Below the pieces are notes generated by a model, which saw only the letters and a program-made list of their open reading frames with translations, made no database searches and was not told the DNA's origin. Shown one piece after another: positions 3,117 to 53,809 of a DNA stretch of 64,000 bases; the first letter of the stretch is position 1; each line of letters opens with the position of its first letter. Location: assembly GCA_964514575.1 (NCBI GenBank), contig CAZETJ010000001.1:56014-120013 (forward strand). The letters run 5' to 3'. The translations under genes and the position numbers were made by a program. The stretch is from an uncultured Candidatus Saccharibacteria bacterium (GTDB lineage Bacteria > Patescibacteriota > Saccharimonadia > Saccharimonadales > UBA10212).

Positions 3117-3118
3117 CT

Positions 3119-4255
3119 ATGCAGATATCGAAACGGTTTTCTTTGCAAAGAATCGCCTGGGCGGCACTGGCCGTAGTACTTTTGCTTTCGAGCCTTGGTG
3201 GAAGCACCGTTTCGGCCCTGACCCAGGACGATATAAATAGTATTTATAACGATACTGTCTGGTATAAGGCCGGAGGCGGTGCAGCATGCGGGTCGGGCAC
3301 TTTGGTCGGAAGCGATAATGCCCAAAAAGTTTGGAACTACCTAAAAGGACAGAGCTTAAGCGACGCTCAGGCAGCCGGCGTAATGGGCAATATGCAACAG
3401 GAGTCCTCGTTCGACCCAGAGAGAATTGAGAGCGGTGGCAATAGTACCAACCCGGCGGACGCTGGGGGCGGGGGCTGGGGTTTAGTCCAATGGACACCAG
3501 GCTCCAAGGTTCTCGATATTGCCCAAAGTCTTAATATTACCGACCCAATCTATCAGCTCTCGACACAGCTAGAAATAGTTTGGGGCGAGATGATTGGCAC
3601 TAGCCCAGTGGGTGTTGTCAATATGCTCAATGGACTGAAGCAAATCAGCGACGCTGCCCAGGCGGCAACCTACTTTAATGCAAATTTTGAAAGCGGTACT
3701 GATCCGAGTGGGGTCAGGGAGACCTATGCCGTGGCGCTGCTAGCTCAATATGGAGGGACTGGCGCCGGTGGTGGCTGTGGTAATTCAATTAGCCCAAATT
3801 GCCAAGCCGCTAGCGGCACGGCTAGGATTCTCTGCGACGCCGAACAGTACGACACGGTTAGTTATAGCGAGGGCGGCGGCCACCAGGGCGGAGCTGCCTG
3901 GCATACCGACTGTCCAAGTATTGGGCCAGGCTGTGTCTTGGATTGCAGCGGTCTTGTGAACGTTGCAATTTATGATGTGTATGGAACAAATATTAATGAG
4001 ACAACGTATACCGAGGCAAGCGACACGCAGTATTGGCATCATATCTCGTTCGGCGAATTACAGCCCGGAGACTTACTAGAGCCGGGGCAATATAACGGCG
4101 GCCATGTAGAAATAGTCGATCATGTTAACGGACACACTATTTACACCTTTGGCGCTCATACTGCCAATGCCCCTCAGCCAGACCAGGTCGGACCGACAAA
4201 TTATCAATCTAATTCTAATGACGTCTACCTGCGTTACGCGGGACCAGGCGCATGA
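3119..4255 (+). CDS. secreted bifunctional peptidoglycan hydrolase: N-terminal lysozyme-like ('phage tail lysozyme'/CwlT-muramidase-like) domain + C-terminal NlpC/P60 cysteine peptidase domain
   Basis: Signal peptide (MQISKRFSLQRIAWAALAVVLLLSSLGGSTVSA). The motif GNMQQESSFDPERIESGG…GWGLVQWT is typical of the lysozyme-like domain of CwlT/tail-associated lysins. The C-terminus has the NlpC/P60-like catalytic Cys context DCSGLV and a downstream His (GGHVEIV). It starts 2 nt after the previous ORF. Confidence 0.7.
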   Translation: MQISKRFSLQRIAWAALAVVLLLSSLGGSTVSALTQDDINSIYNDTVWYKAGGGAACGSGTLVGSDNAQKVWNYLKGQSLSDAQAAGVMGNMQQESSFDPERIESGGNSTNPADAGGGGWGLVQWTPGSKVLDIAQSLNITDPIYQLSTQLEIVWGEMIGTSPVGVVNMLNGLKQISDAAQAATYFNANFESGTDPSGVRETYAVALLAQYGGTGAGGGCGNSISPNCQAASGTARILCDAEQYDTVSYSEGGGHQGGAAWHTDCPSIGPGCVLDCSGLVNVAIYDVYGTNINETTYTEASDTQYWHHISFGELQPGDLLEPGQYNGGHVEIVDHVNGHTIYTFGAHTANAPQPDQVGPTNYQSNSNDVYLRYAGPGA

Positions 4256-4285
4256 ATAACTTAATTTATGCTAAGGTCATAAAAG

Positions 4286-4714
4286 ATGCGGCTTAATAAA
4301 TACATATACTCTCTAGGTCTTCTGTTTTTCGTCGTAGTTGGCGGCCTGGTGGCACAGTACTTGATACTCGGTGGCGCCAGGGAAGTTAAACTATCATCTT
4401 CTGCACCGCTTACTGGCAGCGTTGCCCAAAGCCTGTATTCCGGTAATGGACGAACCAAATTATTAACTCCTGGCAAAGATTTTAATCTTAAAAACACCCA
4501 CTACTTTGATAATAATACCTGGGTAGTGACTACAGTTACGCCGACTAAACAACAGTTTAACCAAGCGGTTGTCGTTCTAGAGAAAAAAGATTCGGCCTAC
4601 CAGGCTGTGCTGGGCCCGGGCAGCGCCTTCTCAAGTAGCGTTCTTATAAGTCTACCGACCGATGTCGCCAATTATCTTAGTAATCTGGGAGTGACTTATG
4701 GACTCGGGCAATAG
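4286..4714 (+). CDS. hypothetical membrane-anchored protein (N-terminal TM/signal anchor)
   Basis: ORF with N-terminal hydrophobic helix LGLLFFVVVGGLVAQYLIL; no recognisable domain. Confidence 0.5.
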   Translation: MRLNKYIYSLGLLFFVVVGGLVAQYLILGGAREVKLSSSAPLTGSVAQSLYSGNGRTKLLTPGKDFNLKNTHYFDNNTWVVTTVTPTKQQFNQAVVVLEKKDSAYQAVLGPGSAFSSSVLISLPTDVANYLSNLGVTYGLGQ

Positions 4715-6132: not shown

Positions 6133-7188
6133 TTATTTAAGCGCGATTAACTTGTGCCCGCGGTCGAAGTATTCGATGACAGCGTCAGCGTCAGTAGTCG
6201 TTAAAATGGCTTGGCGTCCGGTTAAAAGTTCAACCAGCGCCTGGCGGCGCTTGCCGTCCAGTTCGGAGAAAACATCGTCCAATAGAAGTATTGGGGCTTG
6301 TCCGCGGCTTTTTTCTACCAGCTCGGCCTCGATTTTTTTGAGCGCTAAGATTAATGATCGGGTCTCTCCTCGCGAAGCAGTTATACCGGCGGGGTAGGTA
6401 TTGAGCGAAAATATAAAGTCCTCGCGGTGTGGTCCATGTCCGGTAAAACCCCTAGCTAAATCCGACTGGAGGCTTTTGCCTAATTTAGCGACAAGCCGGC
6501 TGGCGTAGTGGTTGATTGGAAACTCAGCGTCGTATCTAAGGCTCAGTTTGGAGCGCCGGCCAGCAATTTTGTTGTAAGTCCGAGCTAGACTGGTATTAAT
6601 CTGGGTGGCGAGATCCGTGCGCACGGTAGCTAGTTGGGCGCCTAGATCGCCCAGCCGCACATCCCAGGCAAAAAGCTGGCGGCCGGCAAATCTTTCGCCG
6701 CGTTTTAATAGGGCGTTGCGTTGGGTCAGAGTCCGACGATAGGCTGCAGATAAGCTTTTAAATTGCGGGTTGGTGCGCTCTAAGATATCGTCAGCCCAGT
6801 CGCGGCGGTCGGAGGGACTGCCGGCGATAATGGCCGTTTGGTTGGGTTCGAAAAAGACAATTGGAATACTGCGCTCGTAGTTAAGCCTTTTTAGGTTCGT
6901 AGCGTTTATAGAAAAAGTTTTATCTACCGAGTCGCCTATGGGCTCTAGTTTGACGCTTCTTTCTGAGCCTTCAAAAACACCATCTAATCGTGCCCAGGCT
7001 TTGCGGTGCTTGATTAGCTCGGCATCGCTAGCTTTATATGAACGGCCGCGTGACAAAACCATTACTGCTTCTAGCAGGTTGGTTTTGCCGCTGGCATTGG
7101 GACCGACCACAATATTGACGCTTGGCTCAAATTCGAACGACGCGTCAGAGTAACTGCGAAAGTTTTGCAAACGGATAGATCTGATCAT
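6133..7188 (-). CDS. recF: DNA replication and repair protein RecF
   Basis: N-terminal MIRSIRLQNFRSY… and Walker A GPNASGKTNLLEA; C-terminal SMC/RecF-type signature region; canonical position downstream of dnaN. Confidence 0.9.
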   Translation of the reverse strand: MIRSIRLQNFRSYSDASFEFEPSVNIVVGPNASGKTNLLEAVMVLSRGRSYKASDAELIKHRKAWARLDGVFEGSERSVKLEPIGDSVDKTFSINATNLKRLNYERSIPIVFFEPNQTAIIAGSPSDRRDWADDILERTNPQFKSLSAAYRRTLTQRNALLKRGERFAGRQLFAWDVRLGDLGAQLATVRTDLATQINTSLARTYNKIAGRRSKLSLRYDAEFPINHYASRLVAKLGKSLQSDLARGFTGHGPHREDFIFSLNTYPAGITASRGETRSLILALKKIEAELVEKSRGQAPILLLDDVFSELDGKRRQALVELLTGRQAILTTTDADAVIEYFDRGHKLIALK

Positions 7189-7309: not shown

Positions 7310-8398
7310 CTAGCTGCGCAGCGGCATTATCAAGTGTAGATAATCGGGCTCTGATTTGCTCCTAAGTACACAGGGTTCTAGTTTGCCGTTGAAGCAAAAT
7401 TCTATTTGGTCGCCAGAAAAAGCGTTGAGGGCTTCAATCAGATATCTGGAGTTGAGAGTTACTTCGCCGTCACTGCTGACTTGGGCTTCAGCGGCCGCGG
7501 TGTTTTCTCCCAGCTGGCTGGCGACGGCGTTGATGCTAACTCGGGCGTCTTCTTTGGAGGCTTTAATAGTGATACTACCGGCGCTTTCGCGGGCAAACAA
7601 GCTGGAAACTTTGGCGATGTTGGCCAGGTCTGCTCGAGCCATTTTGGCTGTGGTCGCGAATTTGGAAGGTATTAATTTGCGGTAGTCGGGGTAGGTGCCT
7701 TCGATTAAGCGGGCAACTAGGTTGACGTCGCCAGCATGGAAAGATACCTGCTGGTCGTCATGGCTAACAATTACCTCTTCTTCGTCGCTGATGATCCTTA
7801 GAAGATCGGCGGCAGCGCTGGCCGGTAGCAGAAAATCTATTGGCTGGCTGTTTTTGATAAGTTTGGCCTCGGCTAAGCGGTAGCTATCGGTTGCGGCTAT
7901 TGCCACCCCTGTATCGTCGCCGTGAAAATTTACACCTGTTAAAACCGGTCGAGAGTCATCTGGGCTAGCGGCAAAAACTACTTTAGAAAGTGCTTTTTTG
8001 AAGTCAACTGCTGGAATTTTCCAAGTTGCGGCTTGGCTGATAGCTGGCATAACCGGAAAGTCCTCGGCTGGGATTCCATTAATTACCGATTGATATTGGT
8101 CGGTGGTTATTTTTAGATGGTTTTCTTCTAGCTCTAGGTTTATTACGCCTTCGGGAAGACTGCTAATAAAGTCTTGCATGAGTTTGGCGGGGACGGTGAT
8201 AGCGCCTTCGGCGGTGATTTTGGAACCAACAAAGTGGGTTATGGCGATGTCTAGGTTAGTGGCTGCAATGCTGAGGCGGTTATTTTCGGTTTTAAGGAGT
8301 ACGTTGGCAAGCACAGGGAGTGTGCCGCGGTTACTGGCGATACGAGCAACGGTATTTAGGGACCGAGCTAAATTGTTTTGGGCAACTTGTAGTTTCAT
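7310..8398 (-). CDS. dnaN: DNA polymerase III beta sliding clamp
   Basis: MKLQVAQNNLARSLNTVARIA… is a typical DnaN N-terminus; ~360 aa; located between dnaA and recF. Confidence 0.9.
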   Translation of the reverse strand: MKLQVAQNNLARSLNTVARIASNRGTLPVLANVLLKTENNRLSIAATNLDIAITHFVGSKITAEGAITVPAKLMQDFISSLPEGVINLELEENHLKITTDQYQSVINGIPAEDFPVMPAISQAATWKIPAVDFKKALSKVVFAASPDDSRPVLTGVNFHGDDTGVAIAATDSYRLAEAKLIKNSQPIDFLLPASAAADLLRIISDEEEVIVSHDDQQVSFHAGDVNLVARLIEGTYPDYRKLIPSKFATTAKMARADLANIAKVSSLFARESAGSITIKASKEDARVSINAVASQLGENTAAAEAQVSSDGEVTLNSRYLIEALNAFSGDQIEFCFNGKLEPCVLRSKSEPDYLHLIMPLRS

Positions 8399-10925: not shown

Positions 10926-11843
10926 ATGATTGCTAATATTTTCACGACTATTATCGTCCAGCCAATTTTTAACCTGCTGGTGCTGATCTATTCGATTTTA
11001 CCTGGCCATAATTTCGGCTTGGCCATTATTCTATTCACCATTTTGGTGCGCCTGCTGATGTGGCCGCTGGTTAAAAAACAGCTTCATCATGCCCGAGCGA
11101 TGCGCGAGCTTGCACCGGAGCTTAAAAAGATCAAAAAGGCGGCTGGCGGCGATCGCCAAAAAGAATCACAGTTGACCATGGAACTTTACAAAGAAAAAGA
11201 GATTAACCCCTTTGCCAGCATTGGCATCCTATTAGTCCAGGTTCCAATTCTAATCGGTCTTTATGCCAGTCTTCGACGAATCATTAACGACCCGCACCAA
11301 ATCATTACTTTCTCTTATTCCTTTTTGCACCACTTGCCATGGTTGCAAACACTAACACAGGACATCCATCGTTTTGATGATTCGCTGTTTGGGTTGGTCA
11401 ACCTGACGCGTACAGCTGTCGAGACCAGCGGAATTTACTGGCCGGCACTAGCCATTGTGATAGCTAGCGCAGCTGCCCAATATTTTCAGACTAAGCAACT
11501 AATGCCGCAAAATCCACAAGCCCGCTCGTTGCGTTCAATCTTGAGCCAGGCTGGACAGGGTAAACAGGCCGACCAAGCTGAAGTCAACGCCGCCGTTGGT
11601 AAAAGTACCCAATACCTAATCCCATTTATGGTGTTAATTATCTCCATTCGCTTGGCCGTGGCCCTGCCGCTGTACTGGTTGGCTAGCAGCTTAGTGGCCT
11701 ATATACAGCAATCCCGAGTGCTTAAGCACGACGCCGCACTAGCTGATGCCTCTATCGGAGCACAACCCGCAAAACTTATAGATAGTCCTGAGCCGGCCGC
11801 TAAGCTACGCAAAAAACCAGCCCGCAGGAGACGCCGTAAATGA
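10926..11843 (+). CDS. yidC: membrane protein insertase YidC (short, monoderm-type)
   Basis: Multi-TM protein with the conserved YidC/Oxa1 core (FTILVRLLMWPLVKKQ) and a basic C-terminal tail (KKPARRRRRK); conserved rnpA-yidC-jag synteny. Confidence 0.85.
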   Translation: MIANIFTTIIVQPIFNLLVLIYSILPGHNFGLAIILFTILVRLLMWPLVKKQLHHARAMRELAPELKKIKKAAGGDRQKESQLTMELYKEKEINPFASIGILLVQVPILIGLYASLRRIINDPHQIITFSYSFLHHLPWLQTLTQDIHRFDDSLFGLVNLTRTAVETSGIYWPALAIVIASAAAQYFQTKQLMPQNPQARSLRSILSQAGQGKQADQAEVNAAVGKSTQYLIPFMVLIISIRLAVALPLYWLASSLVAYIQQSRVLKHDAALADASIGAQPAKLIDSPEPAAKLRKKPARRRRRK

Positions 11844-45850: not shown

Positions 45851-47269
45851 ATGGCATTGACTACTCATCCCGGGACAGTCGATCTAGTAGCTATCCGCCG
45901 GCAGATAGTCGGTTTGGATACGAAAGTTCCAACGCTTTCCGGCGCAACCAAGACTTATATAAATTTTGACAATGCTGCTAGTACACCGCCGTTTGCTAAA
46001 GTCTTAAAGGCCATTAATGACTTTGCGCCTTGGTACTCTTCGGTCCATCGCGGTAGCGGCTTTAAGAGCCAAATTGCCTCTGAGGCTTATGAGCAAGCAC
46101 GTGAAATAACTTTGGATTTTTTTGGCGCCAACCCGTGCCAGCACACCGCGATTTTCGTCAAAAATACCACCGAGGCTATAAACAAACTGTCCTACCGCCT
46201 AGAGCTATCCAAGGATGATGTTGTGCTGGTCGGTTTGATAGAGCACCACAGTAACGATTTGCCCTGGCGGCGCGCAGCGCACGTTGAGCATATCGGTATT
46301 GATGAACAAGGTCGCCTGGACGAAGCCGACCTCGGCCGCTTGTTTAAAAAATTTGGCCAGCGTGTAAAGTTGCTAGCCATCAGCGGCGCCTCCAACGTAA
46401 CTGGTACTTTGCCAAACATCTATAAGCTGGCCGCCAAAGCCCACGCCCACGGCGCTCAGATTCTGGTGGACTGCGCCCAGCTAGCGCCGCATCGGAAAAT
46501 TAACATGAAAAACTTGGAGGACCCAGAGCACCTCGACTTTATCGCTATCAGCGCTCACAAAATGTACTCGCCCTTTGGCACAGGTGCATTGATCGGCCGG
46601 CGGGATACTTTTGAGCGGGGAGCGCCGGAAGTTTGCGGCGGCGGTACTATCAATGTGGTAACTGAGGACGAGGTTGAATGGGCTGCGCCGCCAGATCGAG
46701 ACGAGGCGGGTTCGCCGAACGTGGTTGGCGCTGTGGCCTTTGGCAAAGCGCTGAAGCAGTTTTCCAAAATCGGCATGGATAAAGTCGCCAAACACGAAGC
46801 TGAGCTGACAACCTATGCGCTTAAGCGTCTGAGCGAAATTCCAGGGATAGTGATTTATGGTCAAACAAATCCAGCCCGAGCCGGCCAACGCCTGGGTGTT
46901 ATAACCTTCAATTTGAGTGAACTTCATCACGAGCTGGTAGCTGCCGTTTTAGGCACCGAATGGGGAATTGGCGTACGGTCTGGTTGTTTCTGCGCCCACC
47001 CGTATGTCACCAAACTACTGGGTTTAGATGCCAAGCAAACCAAACAATTCCGCTCAGCTGTACACACCGGCGATCGCCGCCATATCCCAGGCATGGTTCG
47101 GGTGAGTTTTGGCATATATAACACTAAATCTGAAGTCGACGTTTTGGTAGATGCCCTAGACCAAATTGCTGCCGGTGCTTATGAGGGTGAGTACGACCAA
47201 GACAAAACCACCGGTGAATTTAAAGCCCGCGGCTGGTATCCCCGGCTCGAAAACTACTTCAGCATATAG
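45851..47269 (+). CDS. class-V aminotransferase / cysteine desulfurase (SufS/CsdA-like)
   Basis: PLP-lysine context SAHKMYSPFGTGAL, SGASNVTGT, and a catalytic Cys context RSGCFCAHPY. Confidence 0.8.
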   Translation: MALTTHPGTVDLVAIRRQIVGLDTKVPTLSGATKTYINFDNAASTPPFAKVLKAINDFAPWYSSVHRGSGFKSQIASEAYEQAREITLDFFGANPCQHTAIFVKNTTEAINKLSYRLELSKDDVVLVGLIEHHSNDLPWRRAAHVEHIGIDEQGRLDEADLGRLFKKFGQRVKLLAISGASNVTGTLPNIYKLAAKAHAHGAQILVDCAQLAPHRKINMKNLEDPEHLDFIAISAHKMYSPFGTGALIGRRDTFERGAPEVCGGGTINVVTEDEVEWAAPPDRDEAGSPNVVGAVAFGKALKQFSKIGMDKVAKHEAELTTYALKRLSEIPGIVIYGQTNPARAGQRLGVITFNLSELHHELVAAVLGTEWGIGVRSGCFCAHPYVTKLLGLDAKQTKQFRSAVHTGDRRHIPGMVRVSFGIYNTKSEVDVLVDALDQIAAGAYEGEYDQDKTTGEFKARGWYPRLENYFSI

Positions 47270-47484
47270 ACTGTACGACCATAACCTCTGATCAGGGTTG
47301 CTCAAGGAACGTCGTATTTTACGGTGCTGCTGCCAGTCATCGATAATGTTTCCCAAGCTGTGCAACCTCGCACTCCTTTCTCGCTGACTTGATACTAGGC
47401 AAGCCAGCCGATAGTTTCTGTTAACAAATTGGCTTGCCAAAGCATTATAACCAGACTTTAATAACACTCATATTAAGTTGAACC

Positions 47485-47919
47485 ATGACATTAAGAAATA
47501 AAAAAATAAAGATTATTCTGACGGTCGTAGTTCCGATCGTTGCCATAGGTGCGGTTGATTACTTTGCTTGGTATAAGGCGCCAGCTGACTGTGGAACAAT
47601 CGAAACGCCCAGCGCAACAGCATACGACACCAATGTAAAAGTTTCACAAAGCGACTATAGTAAATTATCCACCTGTTTCACTAAGCGCTATTTTGGTCTT
47701 CGATCTACAAAAATAAGCATAGAAAACAAACAAAAAGACTCAGGCAATACTTACATATTTACTTATAAAGGAATGAAAATCAGCGGGGTTAGCGACTCAT
47801 TTAATCAATACGGAAGTGCAAAGTTTGGCTTTGGCTGTAGCTCAGCTGTAAAAACTCAAAGTAGCATGATCTTTACTTGTCAGAACGGCAATTTTAAGTA
47901 CGTCGTCAGCTCTATTTAG
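47485..47919 (+). CDS. hypothetical secreted/membrane-anchored protein
   Basis: N-terminal TM/signal (IKIILTVVVPIVAIGAV) and multiple Cys; no domain recognised. Confidence 0.45.
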   Translation: MTLRNKKIKIILTVVVPIVAIGAVDYFAWYKAPADCGTIETPSATAYDTNVKVSQSDYSKLSTCFTKRYFGLRSTKISIENKQKDSGNTYIFTYKGMKISGVSDSFNQYGSAKFGFGCSSAVKTQSSMIFTCQNGNFKYVVSSI

Positions 47920-47940
47920 CTTCCATAGGCTATTTGTAAC

Positions 47941-48516
47941 TTAGAAGGTTTTACAGATCGGCACGCCAGTCTGTTTGCTGATATCTTGAGCCGCAGTGGC
48001 GTTTATGATTTTGCTAGAGATACACAGAGGTTCACCAGTCCCGGCACCGTAAGCAAAACTGCGGCTACCGTCGCTAGCTATCTTAAAGGCCATTACTCTC
48101 ACGGGTATAGTCGTATCGTTGGCGCAAGCTACCAAGTAAGCTTGGTAATTGTCTACTGGTTTAGGTGTTAGCGAAGCCGAGACCAATTCACTATTGTCCT
48201 TGCTAGCACATTCTGGTCCGAAGTCCGAGCTCGTCGGTAGGGCGTAGAGCTTCTGGGCAGCTTCAAGCGCACTAATCTGAGAATTGGCACCCGTGAGACT
48301 TTGCTGACTGGTTTTAAGTTTCGAGTGCTGCCACGAATAAACACCGTAAATCAACCCAAAGGCAAGTATTAGGACCAAGACGACCATAGCCCAAGACCGG
48401 CGGCGGCCATTGTGTGGCCTAGGCACAGTTGCCTGCGGAGGATTAGGGGCAGGCGGGATATCAGGTGATAAGGGAGCAGGCGCTACATTTGTTGGAGGTT
48501 GAAAGTTTGGTTCCAT
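47941..48516 (-). CDS. hypothetical Pro-rich single-pass membrane protein
   Basis: Pro-rich N-terminus, TM (WAMVVLVLILAFGLIYGVY) and an extracytoplasmic Cys-containing domain. Confidence 0.45.
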   Translation of the reverse strand: MEPNFQPPTNVAPAPLSPDIPPAPNPPQATVPRPHNGRRRSWAMVVLVLILAFGLIYGVYSWQHSKLKTSQQSLTGANSQISALEAAQKLYALPTSSDFGPECASKDNSELVSASLTPKPVDNYQAYLVACANDTTIPVRVMAFKIASDGSRSFAYGAGTGEPLCISSKIINATAAQDISKQTGVPICKTF

Positions 48517-48618
48517 ACCAAAATTATAACAAACTACTTATGTTTATGGCTCCCCTAGACGAATGGTATCACTGATGTATGCAGTCGGCCCGGCAACAGG
48601 GTCGGCGCCAACCTTCTA

Positions 48619-48927
48619 TTATTTGGATCTAGATTGTTTATCTAGCACCCATTGCACAGACGGGCTGATTGGCTTGTCCTTGCGATGGATACAACCAATC
48701 CAACAGCATGGTCGGCGCATCCCTTCTTTGAGTTCCGAAATCACTCGCCTGACATGTTCATCCCGTGTTTTCTGTTGCTTGACTGTTATAGTCCAGCAGA
48801 TCCACTCGTTGCGTGCCAGTGGCGTGAGGTCTTCCCAACGCCCTAGAGCAGATTCGTCAGCTAGCAATGCTTTTCGTAAATCGGCTGGTAGTTTGTGCAC
48901 TACGCCTTCAGAAATTTTTGTGGCCAT
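48619..48927 (-). CDS. YdeI/OmpD-associated (OmdA, DUF1801-like) family protein
   Basis: PADLRKALLADESALGRWEDLTPLARNEWICWTITVKQQKTRDEHVRRVISELKEG fits the YdeI/OmdA family pattern. Confidence 0.55.
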   Translation of the reverse strand: MATKISEGVVHKLPADLRKALLADESALGRWEDLTPLARNEWICWTITVKQQKTRDEHVRRVISELKEGMRRPCCWIGCIHRKDKPISPSVQWVLDKQSRSK

Positions 48928-48951
48928 AGGTATATTTTATATCAGTGGGCT

Positions 48952-48990
48952 TGGCTCCCCGTAGTGATGGAAGTTAGAACTCTTATAGTC
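48952..48990. repeat. direct repeat R, copy 1 (tggctccccgtagtgatggaagttagaactcttatagtc)
   Basis: Near-identical to copy 2 at 49951-49990 (27/28 identical at the 5' end); lies immediately 3' of the MTase cassette gene on the minus strand. Confidence 0.8.
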
Positions 48991-48994
48991 CGTG

Positions 48995-49843
48995 CTAACT
49001 GACTTTTGTGGCTTTTATCATCGCCTGACAATACGGAAAAATATCTTGGTCAAATGCTATTCCACTTATTGCGTCACTGACGAAATAGTTTTCAAGTAAG
49101 GCCTTCAGGCCCGGCCTGACGTCGGGGGTTGGATGTGTAACGGACGTCGTAAGTAAGTCATTCCTCGCCATGGCATTCGTAATTTCTGGAATTGTAGCAA
49201 ACGGATACAGTTGTTTTCTTTCACCTTCCCAGGGCTCGTCTTCTACAAGATAATCAAATTTTGTGAGAAGTGTCGCTAATGTGCTTACATCGGTCACCGC
49301 ATAGCCTGGGTAGTCAAAAATAATATCTGGTTTACGAGCTGTGTATTCCGAAGCAAACTTTCTCAATAGCGCTTCGGCTCTTGCGGTATGTGAGCGTACC
49401 AAGACGGCAGAATTACCTTCTAACGGCATTGCACCATCAAACATTATTAACTGACCTCCGAGCCTCAAAACTCGAGAAACTTCATTTATTGCCTGATCAA
49501 ACTCCTCTAATCTTGTCCCTAACTCGTTGCTACTTGCGACTTCGTGGAAAACGTTAACTGCGCTTACGGCATCAAAACTTTGGTCTGGAAAAGGGATTTC
49601 TTTTACATCCCCATAGGTAAAGTTCAGAGATTTGGCAGATTCAACTCCTCTTAACACAAGCTCAGGGTTGATTTCTAAGGATACGATTTCTGCAGAGGGG
49701 TTCATTGCTTCTAACGCGCTCCCGACCCGTCCGTAGCCAGCTCCCAAGTCTAGGACTGCTGCACCAGCTTCAATACCTTGCAATGAAGCCTCTACAAATG
49801 AGCATAAAAGTTGACCAGCAATAATATTCCCAGTGTGAATCAT
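48995..49843 (-). CDS. class I SAM-dependent methyltransferase (small-molecule type)
   Basis: Motif I VLDLGAGYGRVGSAL and motif II/III (AVSAVNVFHEV…LRLGGQLIMFD); no DNA-MTase (D/N)PPY motif. Confidence 0.7.
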   Translation of the reverse strand: MIHTGNIIAGQLLCSFVEASLQGIEAGAAVLDLGAGYGRVGSALEAMNPSAEIVSLEINPELVLRGVESAKSLNFTYGDVKEIPFPDQSFDAVSAVNVFHEVASSNELGTRLEEFDQAINEVSRVLRLGGQLIMFDGAMPLEGNSAVLVRSHTARAEALLRKFASEYTARKPDIIFDYPGYAVTDVSTLATLLTKFDYLVEDEPWEGERKQLYPFATIPEITNAMARNDLLTTSVTHPTPDVRPGLKALLENYFVSDAISGIAFDQDIFPYCQAMIKATKVS

Positions 49844-49880
49844 TTAATTATTAAATAACAATGAATAAAATTAGTCAATA

Positions 49881-49895
49881 TGGCTCCGGAGGCCG
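49881..49895. repeat. 15-nt exact copy of the tRNA-Asn 3' end (tggctccggaggccg); candidate att-core duplicate
   Basis: Identical to 51313-51327; additional flanking similarity (tt[ag]gtcaata…tggctccggaggccg) at 49871 and 51301. Confidence 0.7.
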
Positions 49896-49950
49896 AGACA
49901 GCATACTGAAGACCAGTAAAAAAGCCGGACGTAAAGTCCGACTCTTTCAC

Positions 49951-49990
49951 TGGCTCCGCGTAGTGATGGAAGTTAGAAACTTATTGGTAC
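49951..49990. repeat. direct repeat R, copy 2 (tggctccgcgtagtgatggaagttagaaacttattggtac)
   Basis: See copy 1; contains the stop codon of the 432-aa ORF. Confidence 0.8.
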
Positions 49991-51271
49991 AACTAGATAC
50001 TTCTCCCAAATGGGGTCGCGGTGAGCGTAACTCTGCATATCAGAAAAGTATCTGGGGTCTTGAAAAGGATCACTTTGGTCTGTTACTTCCTTCCCCCGTA
50101 ATCTTTCTTTGGTCCCCCAAACACATATAACGTCTGTAATTGCTGATGGTTCTGGCCTTTCGTACTCATACGAACGTCTATCATGAATGCGGTACACACT
50201 TAGTTGCACGTCATACTTAGAGAGCAATTCATCAGCTCTAGAATAAACGGCGGGGCTATAAATCACTTTTTGCATGCCCATGCGCCCACCTCTAGCCGCA
50301 AAGGGGAAATCCGCCTTTTTTACTCTGGCCAACGTTTGCTTTACTACCCTTTGAGCAGCCCTTTCAACTTCTTTATCAACTGTTTCTATTTTTTTCGAAG
50401 CAGCCTCGAGATTTTGTGTGACTAGCCCGTCACGCGACTGCGTTTTGACTAGGGATTTAGGCTTGTCGCTATATCCAGAGAGAGCATCTTCTAATAAGAT
50501 CCGACAAACAGTTGCCTCATCTAAATTTGGCCTGCCTTGTATATCACCTTTTAGTTTGTCATGGCCCTCTCTACTCCTAGCAATAGTTATCAACCTACGT
50601 GCAAATGTAGAAGGACTAAAAATCCCCTTATCCCTAGTCACGCTAAAGACCTTATCCCAGCTAATACCATCCGCTGGAAACGCATATTCTTCATTTTCCT
50701 TTGCATTAACCTTAACCAGCGAGACGGATGATTGTTGAATATCACCGCTTTCTGACTCCAGGCTGACCATCCAAGTTTTTCCTGCTTTGCCTAATCCTGC
50801 ATGGGAGATAAACGGTCGCAGCCAATAGTAAGTAGTATGCCCCCATTCCGTGGTCGTGGAATGACCAATTAAATCTTTCGGATTTTCGACCATTTTTTGT
50901 TTTAGCTTTTCTGCCAATTCTTTACAAGTCTCATTTTGAGACTCAAGTATGGATAACTGCTGTTCATCTAATTCATCTGCGGGTTTGAGCCTATCATTTG
51001 CAAACCTCCAACCGGGAATTTCCTCTAACTCAACTCCTTGGTAATCATAATCACCCGTATCGACATGGTCTCCGGTCCCATACCCATGCAATGGTTCGAC
51101 CTTGGCAACAGTAAAAATGCCGTTTATAACATCGGTATGCGAAAAATCAGGGTACGTATCGTAGCCGGAATACAGGGGATCTTTAAACATAACCTTATCT
51201 CCCACTACGAATTCCGGCCCGTAAAAAAGGTGTTCTGAAGAAGGCAGATTTTCTCCAACTCGATCTATCAT
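49973..51271 (-). CDS. hypothetical 432-aa protein (possible P-loop GLGKAGKT), cassette gene next to tRNA-Asn
   Basis: Long ORF. A GxxxxGKT-type motif (HAGLGKAGKTW) and a possible hhhhDE-like segment (RILLED); no family recognised. Confidence 0.55.
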   Translation of the reverse strand: MIDRVGENLPSSEHLFYGPEFVVGDKVMFKDPLYSGYDTYPDFSHTDVINGIFTVAKVEPLHGYGTGDHVDTGDYDYQGVELEEIPGWRFANDRLKPADELDEQQLSILESQNETCKELAEKLKQKMVENPKDLIGHSTTTEWGHTTYYWLRPFISHAGLGKAGKTWMVSLESESGDIQQSSVSLVKVNAKENEEYAFPADGISWDKVFSVTRDKGIFSPSTFARRLITIARSREGHDKLKGDIQGRPNLDEATVCRILLEDALSGYSDKPKSLVKTQSRDGLVTQNLEAASKKIETVDKEVERAAQRVVKQTLARVKKADFPFAARGGRMGMQKVIYSPAVYSRADELLSKYDVQLSVYRIHDRRSYEYERPEPSAITDVICVWGTKERLRGKEVTDQSDPFQDPRYFSDMQSYAHRDPIWEKYLVVPISF

Positions 51272-51312
51272 GTGTTATATAATATAACTAAAGGAGCAAA
51301 TTGTCAATATCG

Positions 51313-51387
51313 TGGCTCCGGAGGCCGGACTCGAACCGGCAACAATCGCCTTAACAGGGCGGTGCTCTACCATTGAGCTACTCCGGA
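51313..51387 (-). tRNA. tRNA-Asn (anticodon GTT)
   Basis: The reverse complement is TCCGGAGTAGCTCAATGGTAGAGCACCGCCCTGTTAAGGCGATTGTTGCCGGTTCGAGTCCGGCCTCCGGAGCCA. Acceptor stem 7/7 paired; D-arm GCTC/GAGC; anticodon loop CTGTTAA; T-arm GCCGG-TTCGAGT-CCGGC; encoded CCA. Confidence 0.8.
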
Positions 51388-51427
51388 ATATCAGCTACAA
51401 AGATATCATACCTCCTTTGAGTTCTCT

Positions 51428-53809
51428 ATGGCGAATGGACTAAACTACCTCTTAAGAAGTAGAATAAACATAAGAATGAATGATGCCGGTGGGGACTTTG
51501 ATAAATATTTGCGCACGGCCAACTACTTGACTGCTGCTCAGATATTCTTACAAGACAACTTTCTATTGGAGCGTCCGTTAAAATTTGAGGATATCAAACC
51601 CCGACTGTTAGGACACTGGGGTTCGGGTCCCGGCGTTAATTTTGCCTACTCACATCTGAGTTATCTGGCGAAGAAACATGATCAAGAGATTTTGTTCATG
51701 CTTGGCCCCGGGCACGCCTTCCCATCATTGCAGGCAAACCTATTTTTAGAGGGCACTCTTGCCAAATATTATCCGGAAGCTAAGCCGACCTATGAGGGCA
51801 TCGGCTACATCTGCAAAAACTTCAGCTGGCCCTACGGCTTTCCTAGCCACAGCAACCCGGCCACGCCCGGTGTGATCTTAGAAGGCGGAGAACTAGGCTA
51901 CTCACTGAGCACGTCTTACGGTGCGGCGCTGGATAACCCGGGCTTGATCGTGGCTTGTTTGGTCGGTGACGGCGAAGCCGAAACCGGACCGACAGCCGGG
52001 GCTTGGCATCTGAATAAGCTGCTCAACCCGTCACGCGACGGCGTAGTTTTGCCAATCCTGCACCTCAACGGTTATAAAATTTCGGCGCCGACCATTTTTG
52101 GCCGAATGAGCGACGAAGAGCTAACAGCGCTATTTACCGGGTACGGCTATCAGCCGCGAATCGTTAGCGGCGATAACGTCCATGCCCAAATGCAGGAAGC
52201 TCTGGAATGGGCCCACGCCGAGATTCAACGCATCAGACAAATCACGCCGACCAGCTGGCAGCACCTGCCGATGATTATTATGCGGACACTCAAAGGCTGG
52301 ACTGGCGTACGCGAGCTTAACGGCCAAAAAATCGAGGGTAATTGCTTATCACATCAAGTAGTTCTAACAGAAGCCAAAACTGACGAAGGCCAACTCAAGC
52401 TGTTGGAGCAGTGGTTGGGCTCATATAAAATTAACGAGCTTTTTTCACGTACAGATGGCTTTGGTCAGTTCGTCGACCAGCTTATGCCTGAACCGGCTAA
52501 ACGTATGGGCGCCAATCCGCGAGCTCTAGGCGGACCGGCGGTGCATAAGCCGCTTAAATTACCAACCGCCGAACAGTTCGCGGAGGATTCCACCAAGCCT
52601 GGAACCATCGGTTCTTCCAGCATGCGCCGCGCCGGGCTGTATTTGAACGAAGTCATAAAGCTCAACGAGGCCGAGCATAACTTCCGGATTATGTCGCCGG
52701 ACGAGACCTATTCCAACAAGCTCGATGAAATTTTTAAATCAACCAAGCGAGCCTGGATGCTGCCGATCGAGCCGTGGGATAAAGACCTAGCGCCCGATGG
52801 CCGGGTTATGGAGATGCTATCTGAGCATAACCTGCAAGGCTTGGCTCAAGGCTACGTACTGACCGGACGCCACGCCGTGTTTGCCAGCTACGAAGCCTTC
52901 GTGCCGGTGGTCACCAGCATGATGGACCAGTACGCCAAGTTCTTAAAGCAATCGCTGGATGTGCCTTGGCGCGGCGAGATCAGCTCGTTAAACTATATTT
53001 TGACATCATCCGGTTGGCGCCAAGAGCATAACGGCTTTAGCCATCAAAATCCTGGCTTTATTGCTGATGCTTTGCGCCGGCAGGGCGACTTTGTGGATGT
53101 CTTTTTCCCGCCGGACGGCAACACGACTCTGGCGGTCCTTAACTATTGCTTGTCAGCAACCCGGCAAATAAATATTATCGTGGCCGGCAAAACGTTAGAG
53201 CCGCGCTGGTTGACGCCGGAGCTGGCAGGCAAGGCTCTGCAGTCGGGCATTATGACTTGGGATTTTGCCAGCGACGATAATCCTGATGTGGTGCTGACCG
53301 CCGCCGGCGATTATCTGACCAAAGAGGCCCTGGCGGCTATCGATTTAGCTAAGCAAGAATGGCCGGACATCCGCCTGCGCTTTGTTAATATTTTGTCACT
53401 AACTAACTGCGGCCTGGGTCGCGGCGGTATGTGTCTAACCCATGAAGGCTTTAACGATTACTTTACGCCGGACAAACCAGTAATCTGCAACTTCCATGGC
53501 TATCCGGAGACACTCAAAGCCATAGTCTTTGATTATATTGCCAGCAGCCCACAGCGGTTTTCGATTCATGGCTATATCGAAAACGGCTCGACGACCACGC
53601 CATTCGATATGCACGTCCGGAACGGCACTAGCCGCTATCACCTGCTGATCGAAGCCTTCCAGAAAGTCGCCGCTACCGGTCGCCTGCCTTATGAAGAGGC
53701 CGAGCATATCATCAAAAAATATCAGCAAAAAATCGAGGACAACACTAGCTACATTAAAGAGCACGGCGTCGATATGCCGGAGATTGAGGCATGGCAATGG
53801 ACTCGCTAG
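51428..53809 (+). CDS. xfp: xylulose-5-phosphate/fructose-6-phosphate phosphoketolase
   Basis: 793 aa; N-terminal YLRTANYLTAAQIFL…GHWGSGPG and a TPP-binding region GDGEAETGP are typical of XFP. Confidence 0.9.
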   Translation: MANGLNYLLRSRINIRMNDAGGDFDKYLRTANYLTAAQIFLQDNFLLERPLKFEDIKPRLLGHWGSGPGVNFAYSHLSYLAKKHDQEILFMLGPGHAFPSLQANLFLEGTLAKYYPEAKPTYEGIGYICKNFSWPYGFPSHSNPATPGVILEGGELGYSLSTSYGAALDNPGLIVACLVGDGEAETGPTAGAWHLNKLLNPSRDGVVLPILHLNGYKISAPTIFGRMSDEELTALFTGYGYQPRIVSGDNVHAQMQEALEWAHAEIQRIRQITPTSWQHLPMIIMRTLKGWTGVRELNGQKIEGNCLSHQVVLTEAKTDEGQLKLLEQWLGSYKINELFSRTDGFGQFVDQLMPEPAKRMGANPRALGGPAVHKPLKLPTAEQFAEDSTKPGTIGSSSMRRAGLYLNEVIKLNEAEHNFRIMSPDETYSNKLDEIFKSTKRAWMLPIEPWDKDLAPDGRVMEMLSEHNLQGLAQGYVLTGRHAVFASYEAFVPVVTSMMDQYAKFLKQSLDVPWRGEISSLNYILTSSGWRQEHNGFSHQNPGFIADALRRQGDFVDVFFPPDGNTTLAVLNYCLSATRQINIIVAGKTLEPRWLTPELAGKALQSGIMTWDFASDDNPDVVLTAAGDYLTKEALAAIDLAKQEWPDIRLRFVNILSLTNCGLGRGGMCLTHEGFNDYFTPDKPVICNFHGYPETLKAIVFDYIASSPQRFSIHGYIENGSTTTPFDMHVRNGTSRYHLLIEAFQKVAATGRLPYEEAEHIIKKYQQKIEDNTSYIKEHGVDMPEIEAWQWTR

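Follow-up and report, generated by a model that had tools for sequence, protein, structure and literature searches.

A tRNA-Asn-linked array of single-gene cassettes in a Saccharibacteria contig and a metagenomic family of similar arrays

Downstream of a tRNA-Asn gene in a contig of an uncultured Candidatus Saccharibacteria bacterium (GenBank CAZETJ010000001.1, positions 56,014 to 120,013; this stretch of 64,000 nucleotides (nt) is referred to here as the window), unrelated genes follow one another on the same strand, separated by short repeats and by a partial copy of the tRNA 3′ end. What kind of element is this, and how could genes have been added to it when no recombinase is in view? A preliminary description of the window proposed that genes were inserted serially at the tRNA 3′ end, or that the locus is an integron-like array of cassettes. 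The array reading is backed by the linkage of the repeat, which we call B, to tRNA-Asn, by the unrelated cargo, and by the breaks in homology that fall at B. On balance we favor the reading that three cassettes form an array docked at the tRNA-Asn 3′ end, and that this array is a member of a widespread family whose units would recombine at a GGAGCCA core through an enzyme encoded elsewhere. This judgement merges high confidence in the description of the array and its family with roughly even odds on a site-specific enzyme acting in trans.

Three cassettes beside tRNA-Asn

The array and its immediate flank comprise the following features, listed from the tRNA outward.

51313-51387, minus strand: tRNA-Asn(GTT) with encoded CCA, the docking site of the array (ARAGORN; Rfam tRNA model, 69.4 bits)
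51279-51307, minus strand: promoter-like site TTGACA-17-TATTAT, starting 6 nt past the tRNA CCA (consensus scan, 11/12 matches)
49973-51271, minus strand: orf432, the cargo of cassette 1, 432 amino acids, function unknown (no Pfam or PHROG match)
49951-49978, minus strand: B1, 28-nt junction site TTCTAACTTCCATCACTACGCGGAGCCA (nhmmer E = 1e-7), with fainter similarity to 49990; overlaps the orf432 stop codon
49912-49954, minus strand: long hairpin with a T-run, resembling an intrinsic terminator, between B1 and A2 (RNA fold)
49855-49899, minus strand: A2, a displaced partial copy of the tRNA-Asn 3′ end and of the promoter-like flank that follows it (TTGACT-17-TTTAAT); exact over 15 nt at 49881-49895
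48995-49843, minus strand: class I S-adenosylmethionine (SAM)-dependent methyltransferase, the cargo of cassette 2, 282 amino acids (Pfam Methyltransf_11, 4e-15)
48952-48979, minus strand: B2, 28-nt junction site TTCTAACTTCCATCACTACGGGGAGCCA (nhmmer E = 2e-8), with fainter similarity to 48990
48619-48927, minus strand: OmdA/YdeI-family protein, the cargo of cassette 3, 102 amino acids (Pfam OmdA, 7e-15)
48547-48567, minus strand: B3, a degenerate distal junction (...CCATTCGTCTAGGGGAGCCA), called on heptamer, position and strand; a weak call, under the nhmmer threshold
47941-48516, minus strand: hyp191, a membrane-anchored hypothetical protein of 191 amino acids, the first gene past the last junction; flank, outside the array

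The tRNA-Asn gene of the preliminary description was called by both ARAGORN and Rfam. Its final seven nucleotides, GGAGCCA (51313-51319), are common to every junction, as is apparent when tRNA-Asn 3′ ends are compared with B in other loci. In the window, five co-oriented intergenic GGAGCCA sites set apart the tRNA, orf432, the methyltransferase gene, the YdeI gene and the flank. Four of these had been recognized from their shared tggctcc on the opposite strand, and all four are indeed intergenic and on one strand, but the count was one short: a fifth lies past the YdeI gene (48547-48553), within GGGGAGCCA at 48547-48555 on the minus strand. Five copies on one strand in 2841 nt compare with 0.17 expected (P ~1e-6), although each repeat pair accounts for two of the five, and not all of the sites are thus independent. 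The orf432 and methyltransferase units, first described as two single-gene units, are real, the one gene encoding a protein of 432 residues that matches no Pfam family and the other a 282-residue protein of the Methyltransf_11/25 type; the YdeI gene is here read as a third cassette.

The two clear copies of B are identical at 27/28 positions, and no further copy with up to three mismatches occurs in the window, where none is expected by chance. With fainter similarity extending about 10 nt beyond this 28-nt core, the earlier figure of ~38 nt for the direct repeat is a fair one. The sequence of B2, TTCTAACTTCCATCACTACGGGGAGCCA, is also the most frequent Saccharibacteria-type variant of B. B3 is followed by TAAACATAAGTAG, resembling the AGCATAAG flank that is found after tRNA-Asn or after B elsewhere. 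The window thus has the layout that defines the family, a tRNA-Asn followed by same-strand units that end in TTCTAACTTCnnnCACTACGGGGAGCCA-like sites (B1 and B2).

A second kind of junction is a fragment of the tRNA itself. The 15-nt sequence TGGCTCCGGAGGCCG is exact at 49881-49895, and the tRNA 3′ end (A1) and A2 are its sole two copies in the 64 kb. This copy had been noted together with additional flanking similarity, which local alignment resolved into a gapped match of ~45 nt (window 49899-49855, three small gaps) that takes in 18 nt of the tRNA, the other ~27 nt falling in the flank downstream of it. The alignment scores 42, against a mean of 21.8 (s.d. 2.2, maximum 31) for shuffled queries. 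A1 and A2 are 1432 nt apart, and orf432, which has no similarity to recombinases, is the sole open reading frame (ORF) assigned to this interval. The region between B1 and A2 is highly structured: the predicted fold of 49870-49990 on the minus strand has an energy of -42.5 kcal/mol (z = -5.0), and its hairpin was not listed by a simple terminator scan. The plus-strand ORF that spans this junction (49861-50130), dismissed earlier as spurious, is present and has no support as a gene.

The promoter-like site directly past the tRNA, if it functions as its consensus match suggests, would yield a leaderless or near-leaderless orf432 mRNA. The same layout, CCA-(N)n-ATTGAC, recurs after A2, after the tRNA-Asn of another locus (L104) and after a partial tRNA-Lys (L096), and a second TTGAC box lies between A2 and the methyltransferase gene.

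A family of junction sites linked to tRNA-Asn

We scanned metagenomes with the pattern TTCTAASTTCNNNCACTNNGNGGAGCCA, in which 21 positions are fixed, and found 108 instances in 81 stretches from sediments, groundwater, peat and rhizosphere. Copies of B within any one contig all lie on one strand, and at least 11 co-oriented units with unrelated cargo occupy a single 27.4-kb contig (L113, L114, L128, L176). A tRNA-Asn(GTT) gene is present in 20 of the 81 loci, compared with three other tRNAs in total, and in 22/22 pairs of tRNA-Asn and B the site has the orientation of the tRNA and is found 268-3163 nt downstream; loci that lack this tRNA are mostly short of upstream sequence. Where tRNA-Asn is present, diverse and unrelated housekeeping genes precede it. 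A B profile found nothing in 1.41 Mb of other Patescibacteria sequence beyond B1, B2 and the L104 site, and B had no matches in the viral and plasmid collections IMG/VR and PLSDB. One objection anticipated for the locus was that its repeat could be a common, genome-wide terminator-like element. B does follow many unrelated genes, but it does so only inside tRNA-Asn-linked arrays, which argues against a dispersed repeat of this kind.

The hosts carry at least six different tRNA-Asn 3′ ends, and those that encode CCA have only GGAGCCA in common with B. In hosts of what we term the GTC type, the tRNA ends in ...GTCCCTCCCGGGGAGCCA, and the last 18 nt of B, GTCCACTACGGGGAGCCA, match it at 14/18 positions without gaps; because of this match, B looks like a diverged T-loop-to-CCA segment of a tRNA-Asn. 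In a low-GC lineage (L148, with a GC content of 0.33; L160, L171 and L175), the tRNA-Asn gene ends in ...GGGGGAGC followed by AAA, so that CCA is not encoded; the B downstream still ends in GGAGCCA, and the overlap of tRNA and B there is GGGGAGC.

Two types of array can be told apart. At the GTC-type sites (41 unique), conservation extends over a further ~45 nt upstream of B and over a GC-rich terminator hairpin of ~33 nt downstream, which shows many compensatory changes, and the cargo is mostly antisense to B. At the other 38 unique sites, which include the Saccharibacteria-like ones, conservation is limited to the 28 nt and the cargo is in the sense orientation. Among 259 ORFs of at least 150 amino acids we counted 184 cargo clusters. 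The cargo is unrelated and accessory-like, comprising Fic/Doc proteins, pairs of HEPN and nucleotidyltransferase proteins (HEPN/MNT), TetR regulators, alpha/beta-hydrolases, proteins of the metallo-beta-lactamase fold, methyltransferases, an acyl-CoA dehydrogenase, PLD proteins and a decarboxylase. Unrelated methyltransferases are the commonest cargo before B in other Saccharibacteria-type loci. Homologues of YdeI directly follow a B site in L141/L170 (71% identity) and in L119 (58%), where the genes upstream of them differ. L141 is a longer Saccharibacteria-type array in which good, degenerate and tRNA-like right ends are mixed and whose distal end is a 26-nt fragment of a true tRNA-Asn, so that the window is not alone in mixing B-type and A-type ends.

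The units of these arrays are exchanged at the junction. When the 300-nt flanks on each side of every B were clustered, six left-flank clusters joined more than one right flank, and five right-flank clusters joined more than one left flank, across contigs. In pairwise alignments, identity is 100% up to ...GGAGCCAG with divergence beyond, or the reverse, the breaks falling within B...CCA(G); the hairpin past CCA travels with the right-hand unit, and the 45 nt together with B travel with the left-hand unit. Four families of sequence past CCA follow both tRNA-Asn and B, namely GCAAACCAAGCGAGG... (the hairpin), AGCATAAGC..., AGGTTAGAAC... and (N)nATTGAC... (the promoter-like box), which is what serial insertion at one docking site predicts. 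Three loci (L115, L153 and L166) have a tRNA-Asn identical to that of the window (79/79) followed by other cassettes, with His_Phos_1 and a different methyltransferase as cargo. This exchange of cassettes as units at the inter-cassette site was seen across the family and not for the window's own three cassettes.

One contig, L158 (11,139 nt), has identical ends of 99 nt and closes to 11,040 bp consisting of exactly four B-bounded units (718 + 2008 + 6339 + 1975). Two of its units are 100% identical to units in L168 and L112, from which it departs just past a B site, and no replication or recombination family was found among the L158 ORFs that were scanned. L158 could be an excised multi-cassette circle, and this circular assembly is the only hint of unit mobility.

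The preliminary description raised the possibility of an attC-like fold, which our analysis does not bear out: B with its flanks folds no better than shuffled sequences (z = -0.17 and -0.35), the sole stem predicted inside it is broken by natural variation at positions 11-13 with no compensation, and there is no covariation. Nor is B a tRNA, a tmRNA or another known RNA, since ARAGORN and Rfam are silent at B and a hand parse as T-arm plus acceptor fails.

We also considered whether the sequence GTTAGAAC, the inverted first 8 nt of B, forms a general palindrome with B; it lies 2-4 nt past CCA, where it would pair as an 8-bp stem around the tRNA-like segment (L110 ~3515-3526, L155, L169, and L141 ~7455-7462 and 6868-6875). 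It was rejected, as it marks few junctions only (3/84 B sites and the end of one tRNA), and the inverted copy of TTCTAAC is correspondingly absent after most B sites (present at 3/84).

Two further observations concern individual units. In L141 (7535-7798, minus strand) an 87-residue cassette protein resembles a GIY-YIG nuclease by eye, and the right end of this cassette is tRNA-like, ...GAATGGCCGGAGCCA, in place of a B site. In L113 (2923-4396, plus strand) the end of a group II intron coincides exactly with a cassette junction and directly adjoins the CCA of a B site; the intron has an ORF for a reverse transcriptase/maturase (2923-4317) and a match to domains V/VI at 4326-4396 that scores 39.8 bits against a gathering score of 40. 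Group IIC introns target integron attC sites or terminators, which is a parallel to this insertion.

A recombinase acting in trans and its alternatives

How the units reach the tRNA is less certain than their arrangement. Each unit starts right past a ...GGAGCCA end, whether the tRNA's own or a mimic of it, and holds one gene, often with a promoter-like TTGAC box beside the junction. Its right-hand site again ends in GGAGCCA, usually as the 28-nt B and sometimes, as at A2, as a true fragment of the host tRNA. We infer circular intermediates, a crossover within GGAGCCA, an enzyme and a recombination chemistry that would act as follows. A circular cassette, in which B-GGAGCCA is joined to the cassette's own left end, would recombine with the GGAGCCA at the tRNA 3′ end and so regenerate the tRNA; an exchange at this extreme end would leave it intact. 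The newest cassette would then stand beside the tRNA with the older ones displaced outward, and in the window YdeI would have been inserted first, then the methyltransferase, then orf432. A2 with the terminator may be the right end of the orf432 unit, or else a separate mini-unit of 70 nt, like the units of 136-206 nt that lie past other tRNAs. At an empty site the tRNA CCA would run straight into a downstream cassette or into the TAAACATAAG flank. As with non-autonomous elements or cassette clusters that lack an integrase, the reaction would depend on a site-specific recombinase whose gene lies elsewhere.

That no recombinase is in view, as first noted, holds for the Pfam annotations of the genes called in the window (~1-59 kb), and no tyrosine recombinase was found in the B loci. 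By Pfam annotation and tyrosine-recombinase searches, the array has no recombinase, primase or helicase. Pfam and PHROG family-frequency scans of part of the ORF set gave no integrase among the top 25 families listed, a result that a single integrase could escape. Searches with regular expressions for recombinase motifs missed the lambda and P4 integrases and were dropped as unreliable; they were replaced by phmmer with nine diverse integrases and by a hidden Markov model (HMM) of their catalytic domains, run against 3356 ORFs drawn from the window, from every B locus and from the other Patescibacteria loci.

Several results weigh against the favored reading. The best tyrosine-recombinase match among the 3356 ORFs had E = 0.08, in short contigs and with no positive control in the data, and Pfam scans of ~130 B-locus ORFs gave no recombinase; the dedicated search covers the tyrosine class, none having been aimed at serine, HUH or other classes. 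Dyad symmetry around the proposed crossover, which is usual in tyrosine-recombinase cores, was not seen by eye. About 20 metagenome contigs of the same population carry the locus unchanged, and none among them shows an empty-site or circular-junction allele of the window's own cassettes. A2 and B1 are interleaved (A1...B1-A2...B2), which requires a 70-nt mini-unit or a composite cassette end, and B3 is a weak site. The constancy of B at the 21 fixed positions follows from the construction of the search pattern, although this does not apply to the free positions, to how many hits there were or to their linkage. Finally, L158 could be an assembly artefact of a duplicated cassette.

The units might also be what is left of larger elements. 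It is unlikely, in our estimate, that the array consists of decayed integrase-bearing islands at tRNA-Asn, from which the integrase and most cargo were deleted and in which A2 and B remain as attR scars. Much of the anatomy would suit such islands. Integration of tRNA-targeting islands regenerates the tRNA and leaves a displaced 3′ fragment (PMC4383910), and A1 and A2 match this pattern exactly, as a textbook pair of intact tRNA and displaced 3′ fragment in direct orientation of the kind used by Islander (PMC4383910); L141 closes with a 26-nt T-loop-to-end fragment, and asparagine tDNAs are known island hot spots (PMC4891358). In the tycheposons of Prochlorococcus, successive integrations displace older elements outward, and tandem integrations and degenerate remnants with extra partial tRNAs have been described. 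However, Islander-type islands and tycheposons are kilobases long and carry their own tyrosine integrase, tycheposons also having replication modules, whereas the units of the window measure 0.4-1.4 kb and none contains an integrase; of the features of tycheposons the partial-tRNA flank alone is present here. No integrase or integrase fragment was detectable in any of the 81 B loci (0/81), units across the family are 0.4-4 kb in length with at least 11 on one contig, and whole units are exchanged between arrays at the junction. Most units, moreover, do not end in a fragment of the host tRNA but in a family-specific 28-nt mimic, and this B is near-constant across hosts with differing tRNA-Asn, which decay would not produce.

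The exchange of units might instead need no dedicated recombinase, with tRNA-Asn and B, or a repeat of ~100 nt, serving as portable homology for RecA-type exchange, for example after natural transformation. Natural competence is presumed for Saccharibacteria, no recombinase was found near the arrays, and the conserved block of the GTC type (~100 nt) is long enough; the observed breakpoints lie inside this block and cannot on their own separate homologous from site-specific exchange. We nevertheless give this a low probability. Saccharibacteria-type arrays conserve only 28 nt, and homology leaves unexplained how unrelated genes each gained a B site, why the left boundary lies exactly past CCA, why the sites are co-oriented with the tRNA, and why B mimics a tRNA 3′ end.

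A route through RNA appears very improbable. In it, a reverse transcriptase starting at CCA would copy transcripts that end in ...GGAGCCA and then take the tRNA 3′ end as its new template, and the complementary DNA would be fixed beside the gene; fungal mitochondrial retroplasmids offer a precedent for CCA-primed reverse transcription. CCA ends every junction, the tRNA fragments vary in length (11-26 nt), a terminator follows CCA in most GTC-type units and also follows the tRNA itself, and the same cassette type occurs at tRNA-Lys. The model is weakened because units carry promoters: the -35 box lies right past the junction and would be absent from an mRNA copy. The cargo of most GTC-type units is antisense to B, the only reverse transcriptase seen belongs to an ordinary group II intron, and the L160 tRNA-Asn gene, which lacks an encoded CCA, has stayed so beside its array.

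That B could be a cis-acting RNA or DNA element (a 3′ untranslated region, a processing signal or a termination signal) in a variable region linked to tRNA-Asn, and no recombination site at all, we regard as hardly credible: in the window B does lie just 3′ of two genes, overlapping one stop codon, and a terminator often follows it, but its orientation tracks the tRNA and ignores the cargo (antisense in the GTC type, sense in the Saccharibacteria type), it has neither a conserved fold nor covariation, it occurs nowhere else in 1.41 Mb, and homology between arrays breaks at it.

Known systems, relatives of orf432 and surroundings of the locus

The favored reading, an array of cassettes moved by an enzyme in trans, invites comparison with integrons. 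As in integrons and in clusters of attC sites lacking integrases (CALINs), which likewise have no integrase nearby, the arrays are co-oriented rows of short, mostly single-gene cassettes with unrelated accessory cargo that includes toxin-antitoxin-type genes, the inter-cassette site is short and conserved, the order is shuffled between genomes, and unrelated cassettes are exchanged as units. The dock, however, is the 3′ end of tRNA-Asn and not an attI beside intI; no intI gene is adjacent and no IntI-like protein was found. There are no attC sites: B is a sequence-conserved mimic of a tRNA end with neither an imperfect hairpin nor R″/R′ cores. Many cassettes here have promoter-like boxes, and the orientation of the cargo varies.

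Two other systems share single traits with the arrays. In Acinetobacter plasmids, pdif modules, which depend on Xer, hold one or a few genes between 28-bp sites and have no recombinase of their own, the enzyme being encoded elsewhere; in small size, site length and lack of a recombinase they resemble the present units. Their dif-like sites, in which a 6-bp spacer separates two inverted 11-bp arms, occur in alternating orientation, whereas B has no inverted arms or dyad symmetry (judged by eye and not with a formal dif model), is always in direct orientation within a contig, and is tied to tRNA-Asn and not to dif. In Escherichia coli, repeats distal to tyrT are each closed by a copy of the tRNA 3′ end, and short direct copies of this kind, including CCA, bracket short units much as A2 and the mini-units of L041, L054 and L096 do. 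The tyrT repeats are confined to a single species and operon, and to our knowledge neither cassette exchange nor a junction site shared across lineages has been described for them.

We tentatively propose, at somewhat less than even odds, that these arrays represent an undescribed integron-like system of gene capture, in which the tRNA-Asn 3′ end would be the dock, the 28-nt mimic of the tRNA end the cassette site, and the recombinase unlinked and of known or new type. Such a system may build arrays of self-expressed single-gene cassettes in Saccharibacteria and in other uncultivated lineages. The B sequence appeared in no paper by full-text search, and keyword searches returned no tRNA-Asn cassette system; the coverage of these searches was incomplete, and an earlier description may exist.

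Saccharibacteria and their relatives have tiny genomes with few recognized mobile elements and, as far as we know, no described integrons, so that their acquisition of accessory genes is an open question. A cassette platform at a universally conserved tRNA end would offer these and other B-bearing lineages a portable hot spot for gene gain and loss, with a site that works in hosts whose tRNA-Asn sequences differ. The 28-nt B could serve as a probe for mining cassette content from metagenomes, as attC does for integrons, and the missing recombinase could be traced directly through candidate enzymes that co-occur with B in complete genomes. Should the enzyme prove new, genome engineers would have a practical interest in it, as its target, a tRNA 3′ end, is near-universal.

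The cargo nearest the tRNA, orf432, has few relatives. No protein among 5.8 billion shares words with it except itself, while nine small, remote relatives emerged when 1.84 billion representatives were scanned in full with HMMER, some matching an N-terminal domain and some a middle domain. Judged from these alignments, orf432 looks like a fusion of two rare families of small proteins (N-domain, residues ~13-100; middle domain, residues ~105-265), and its C-terminal 170 residues had no relatives in the protein searches. AlphaFold was confident for the N-domain alone (residues ~15-100, beta-rich, pLDDT 70-93). Because the homologues align from residue 6-17, we favor the start that gives 432 residues (a leaderless ATG at 51271) over the gene call of 405. 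Protein-anchored scans of metagenomic and viral data with the orf432 family confirmed no relatives, the alignment being too loose or the pattern too degenerate.

These relatives adjoin tRNA-Asn or tRNA-Lys, and in two other lineages (L104 and L098) they lie directly past tRNA-Asn. Six contigs (L097-L102) have a middle-domain relative 20 nt past tRNA-Asn; the sequence after it, TATCCACTATCAGGAGCCG, is B-like by eye but weaker and was missed by the B profile. In L104 an N-domain relative (58% identical) follows tRNA-Asn, beginning with CCA-CGAYATTGAC as in the window and closing with GTTCTAAGTTCGTCCACTGGGGGGAGCCA, a clear B. In L096 another N-domain relative lies between an exact 20-nt copy and an 11/12 copy of the tRNA-Lys 3′ end, with a TTGACA box right past CCA. 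Among 62 tRNAs in the Patescibacteria loci, four have an exact copy of at least 12 nt of their own 3′ end downstream on the same strand, compared with none at three control positions.

Three loci have mini-units of 136-206 nt, each bounded by a tRNA on one side and by an exact 20-23-nt copy of that tRNA's T-loop-to-CCA end on the other (L041, +1 to +217 past tRNA-Lys; L054, +1 to +186 past tRNA-Gln; L096, 4924-5070). Each consists of a terminator hairpin followed by a structured stretch, with no Rfam match. Those of L041 and L054 lie beside different tRNAs and yet have a motif in common, GGGTGAG(G)AAT(G)GCCTGTGGCA(A)TTC(C)GCAAGGC, which sits where the copy of the 5′ strand of the tRNA T-stem is broken.

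The window includes dnaA, dnaN and a large glycosyltransferase cluster within ~1-59 kb, and the neighboring phosphoketolase (XFP) is 67-80% identical to proteins of Saccharibacteria metagenome-assembled genomes. A tRNA-Asn adjoins XFP in none of the 57 relatives scanned for tRNAs (0/57), which leaves no orthologous locus for comparison. In two distant relatives an IscS-like aminotransferase gene lies ~25-35 nt upstream of the phosphoketolase gene (L027, 8590-12358; L045, 8625-12361); in the window (45851-53809) the two are 4.1 kb apart, with two hypothetical genes, the three cassettes and tRNA-Asn between them.

A single contig of the population departs from the window: L013 (~11080-11657, aligned with window 48763-48200) has the same sequence from XFP as far as mid-YdeI, beyond which the differences are mostly at third codon positions; past the YdeI stop codon it continues into a different gene, for a secreted protein. 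L013 is either a recombinant strain or a chimeric assembly, with the breakpoint inside cassette 3. Four independent contigs (L005, L006, L007 and L012) start inside the tRNA (window 51338-51342), ~30 nt before its 3′ end. Their starts would fit a fork in a k = 31 assembly graph at the tRNA 3′ end, and such a fork could reflect other sequences joined to the same tRNA end in the samples concerned, or simply the tRNA-Asn of other species.

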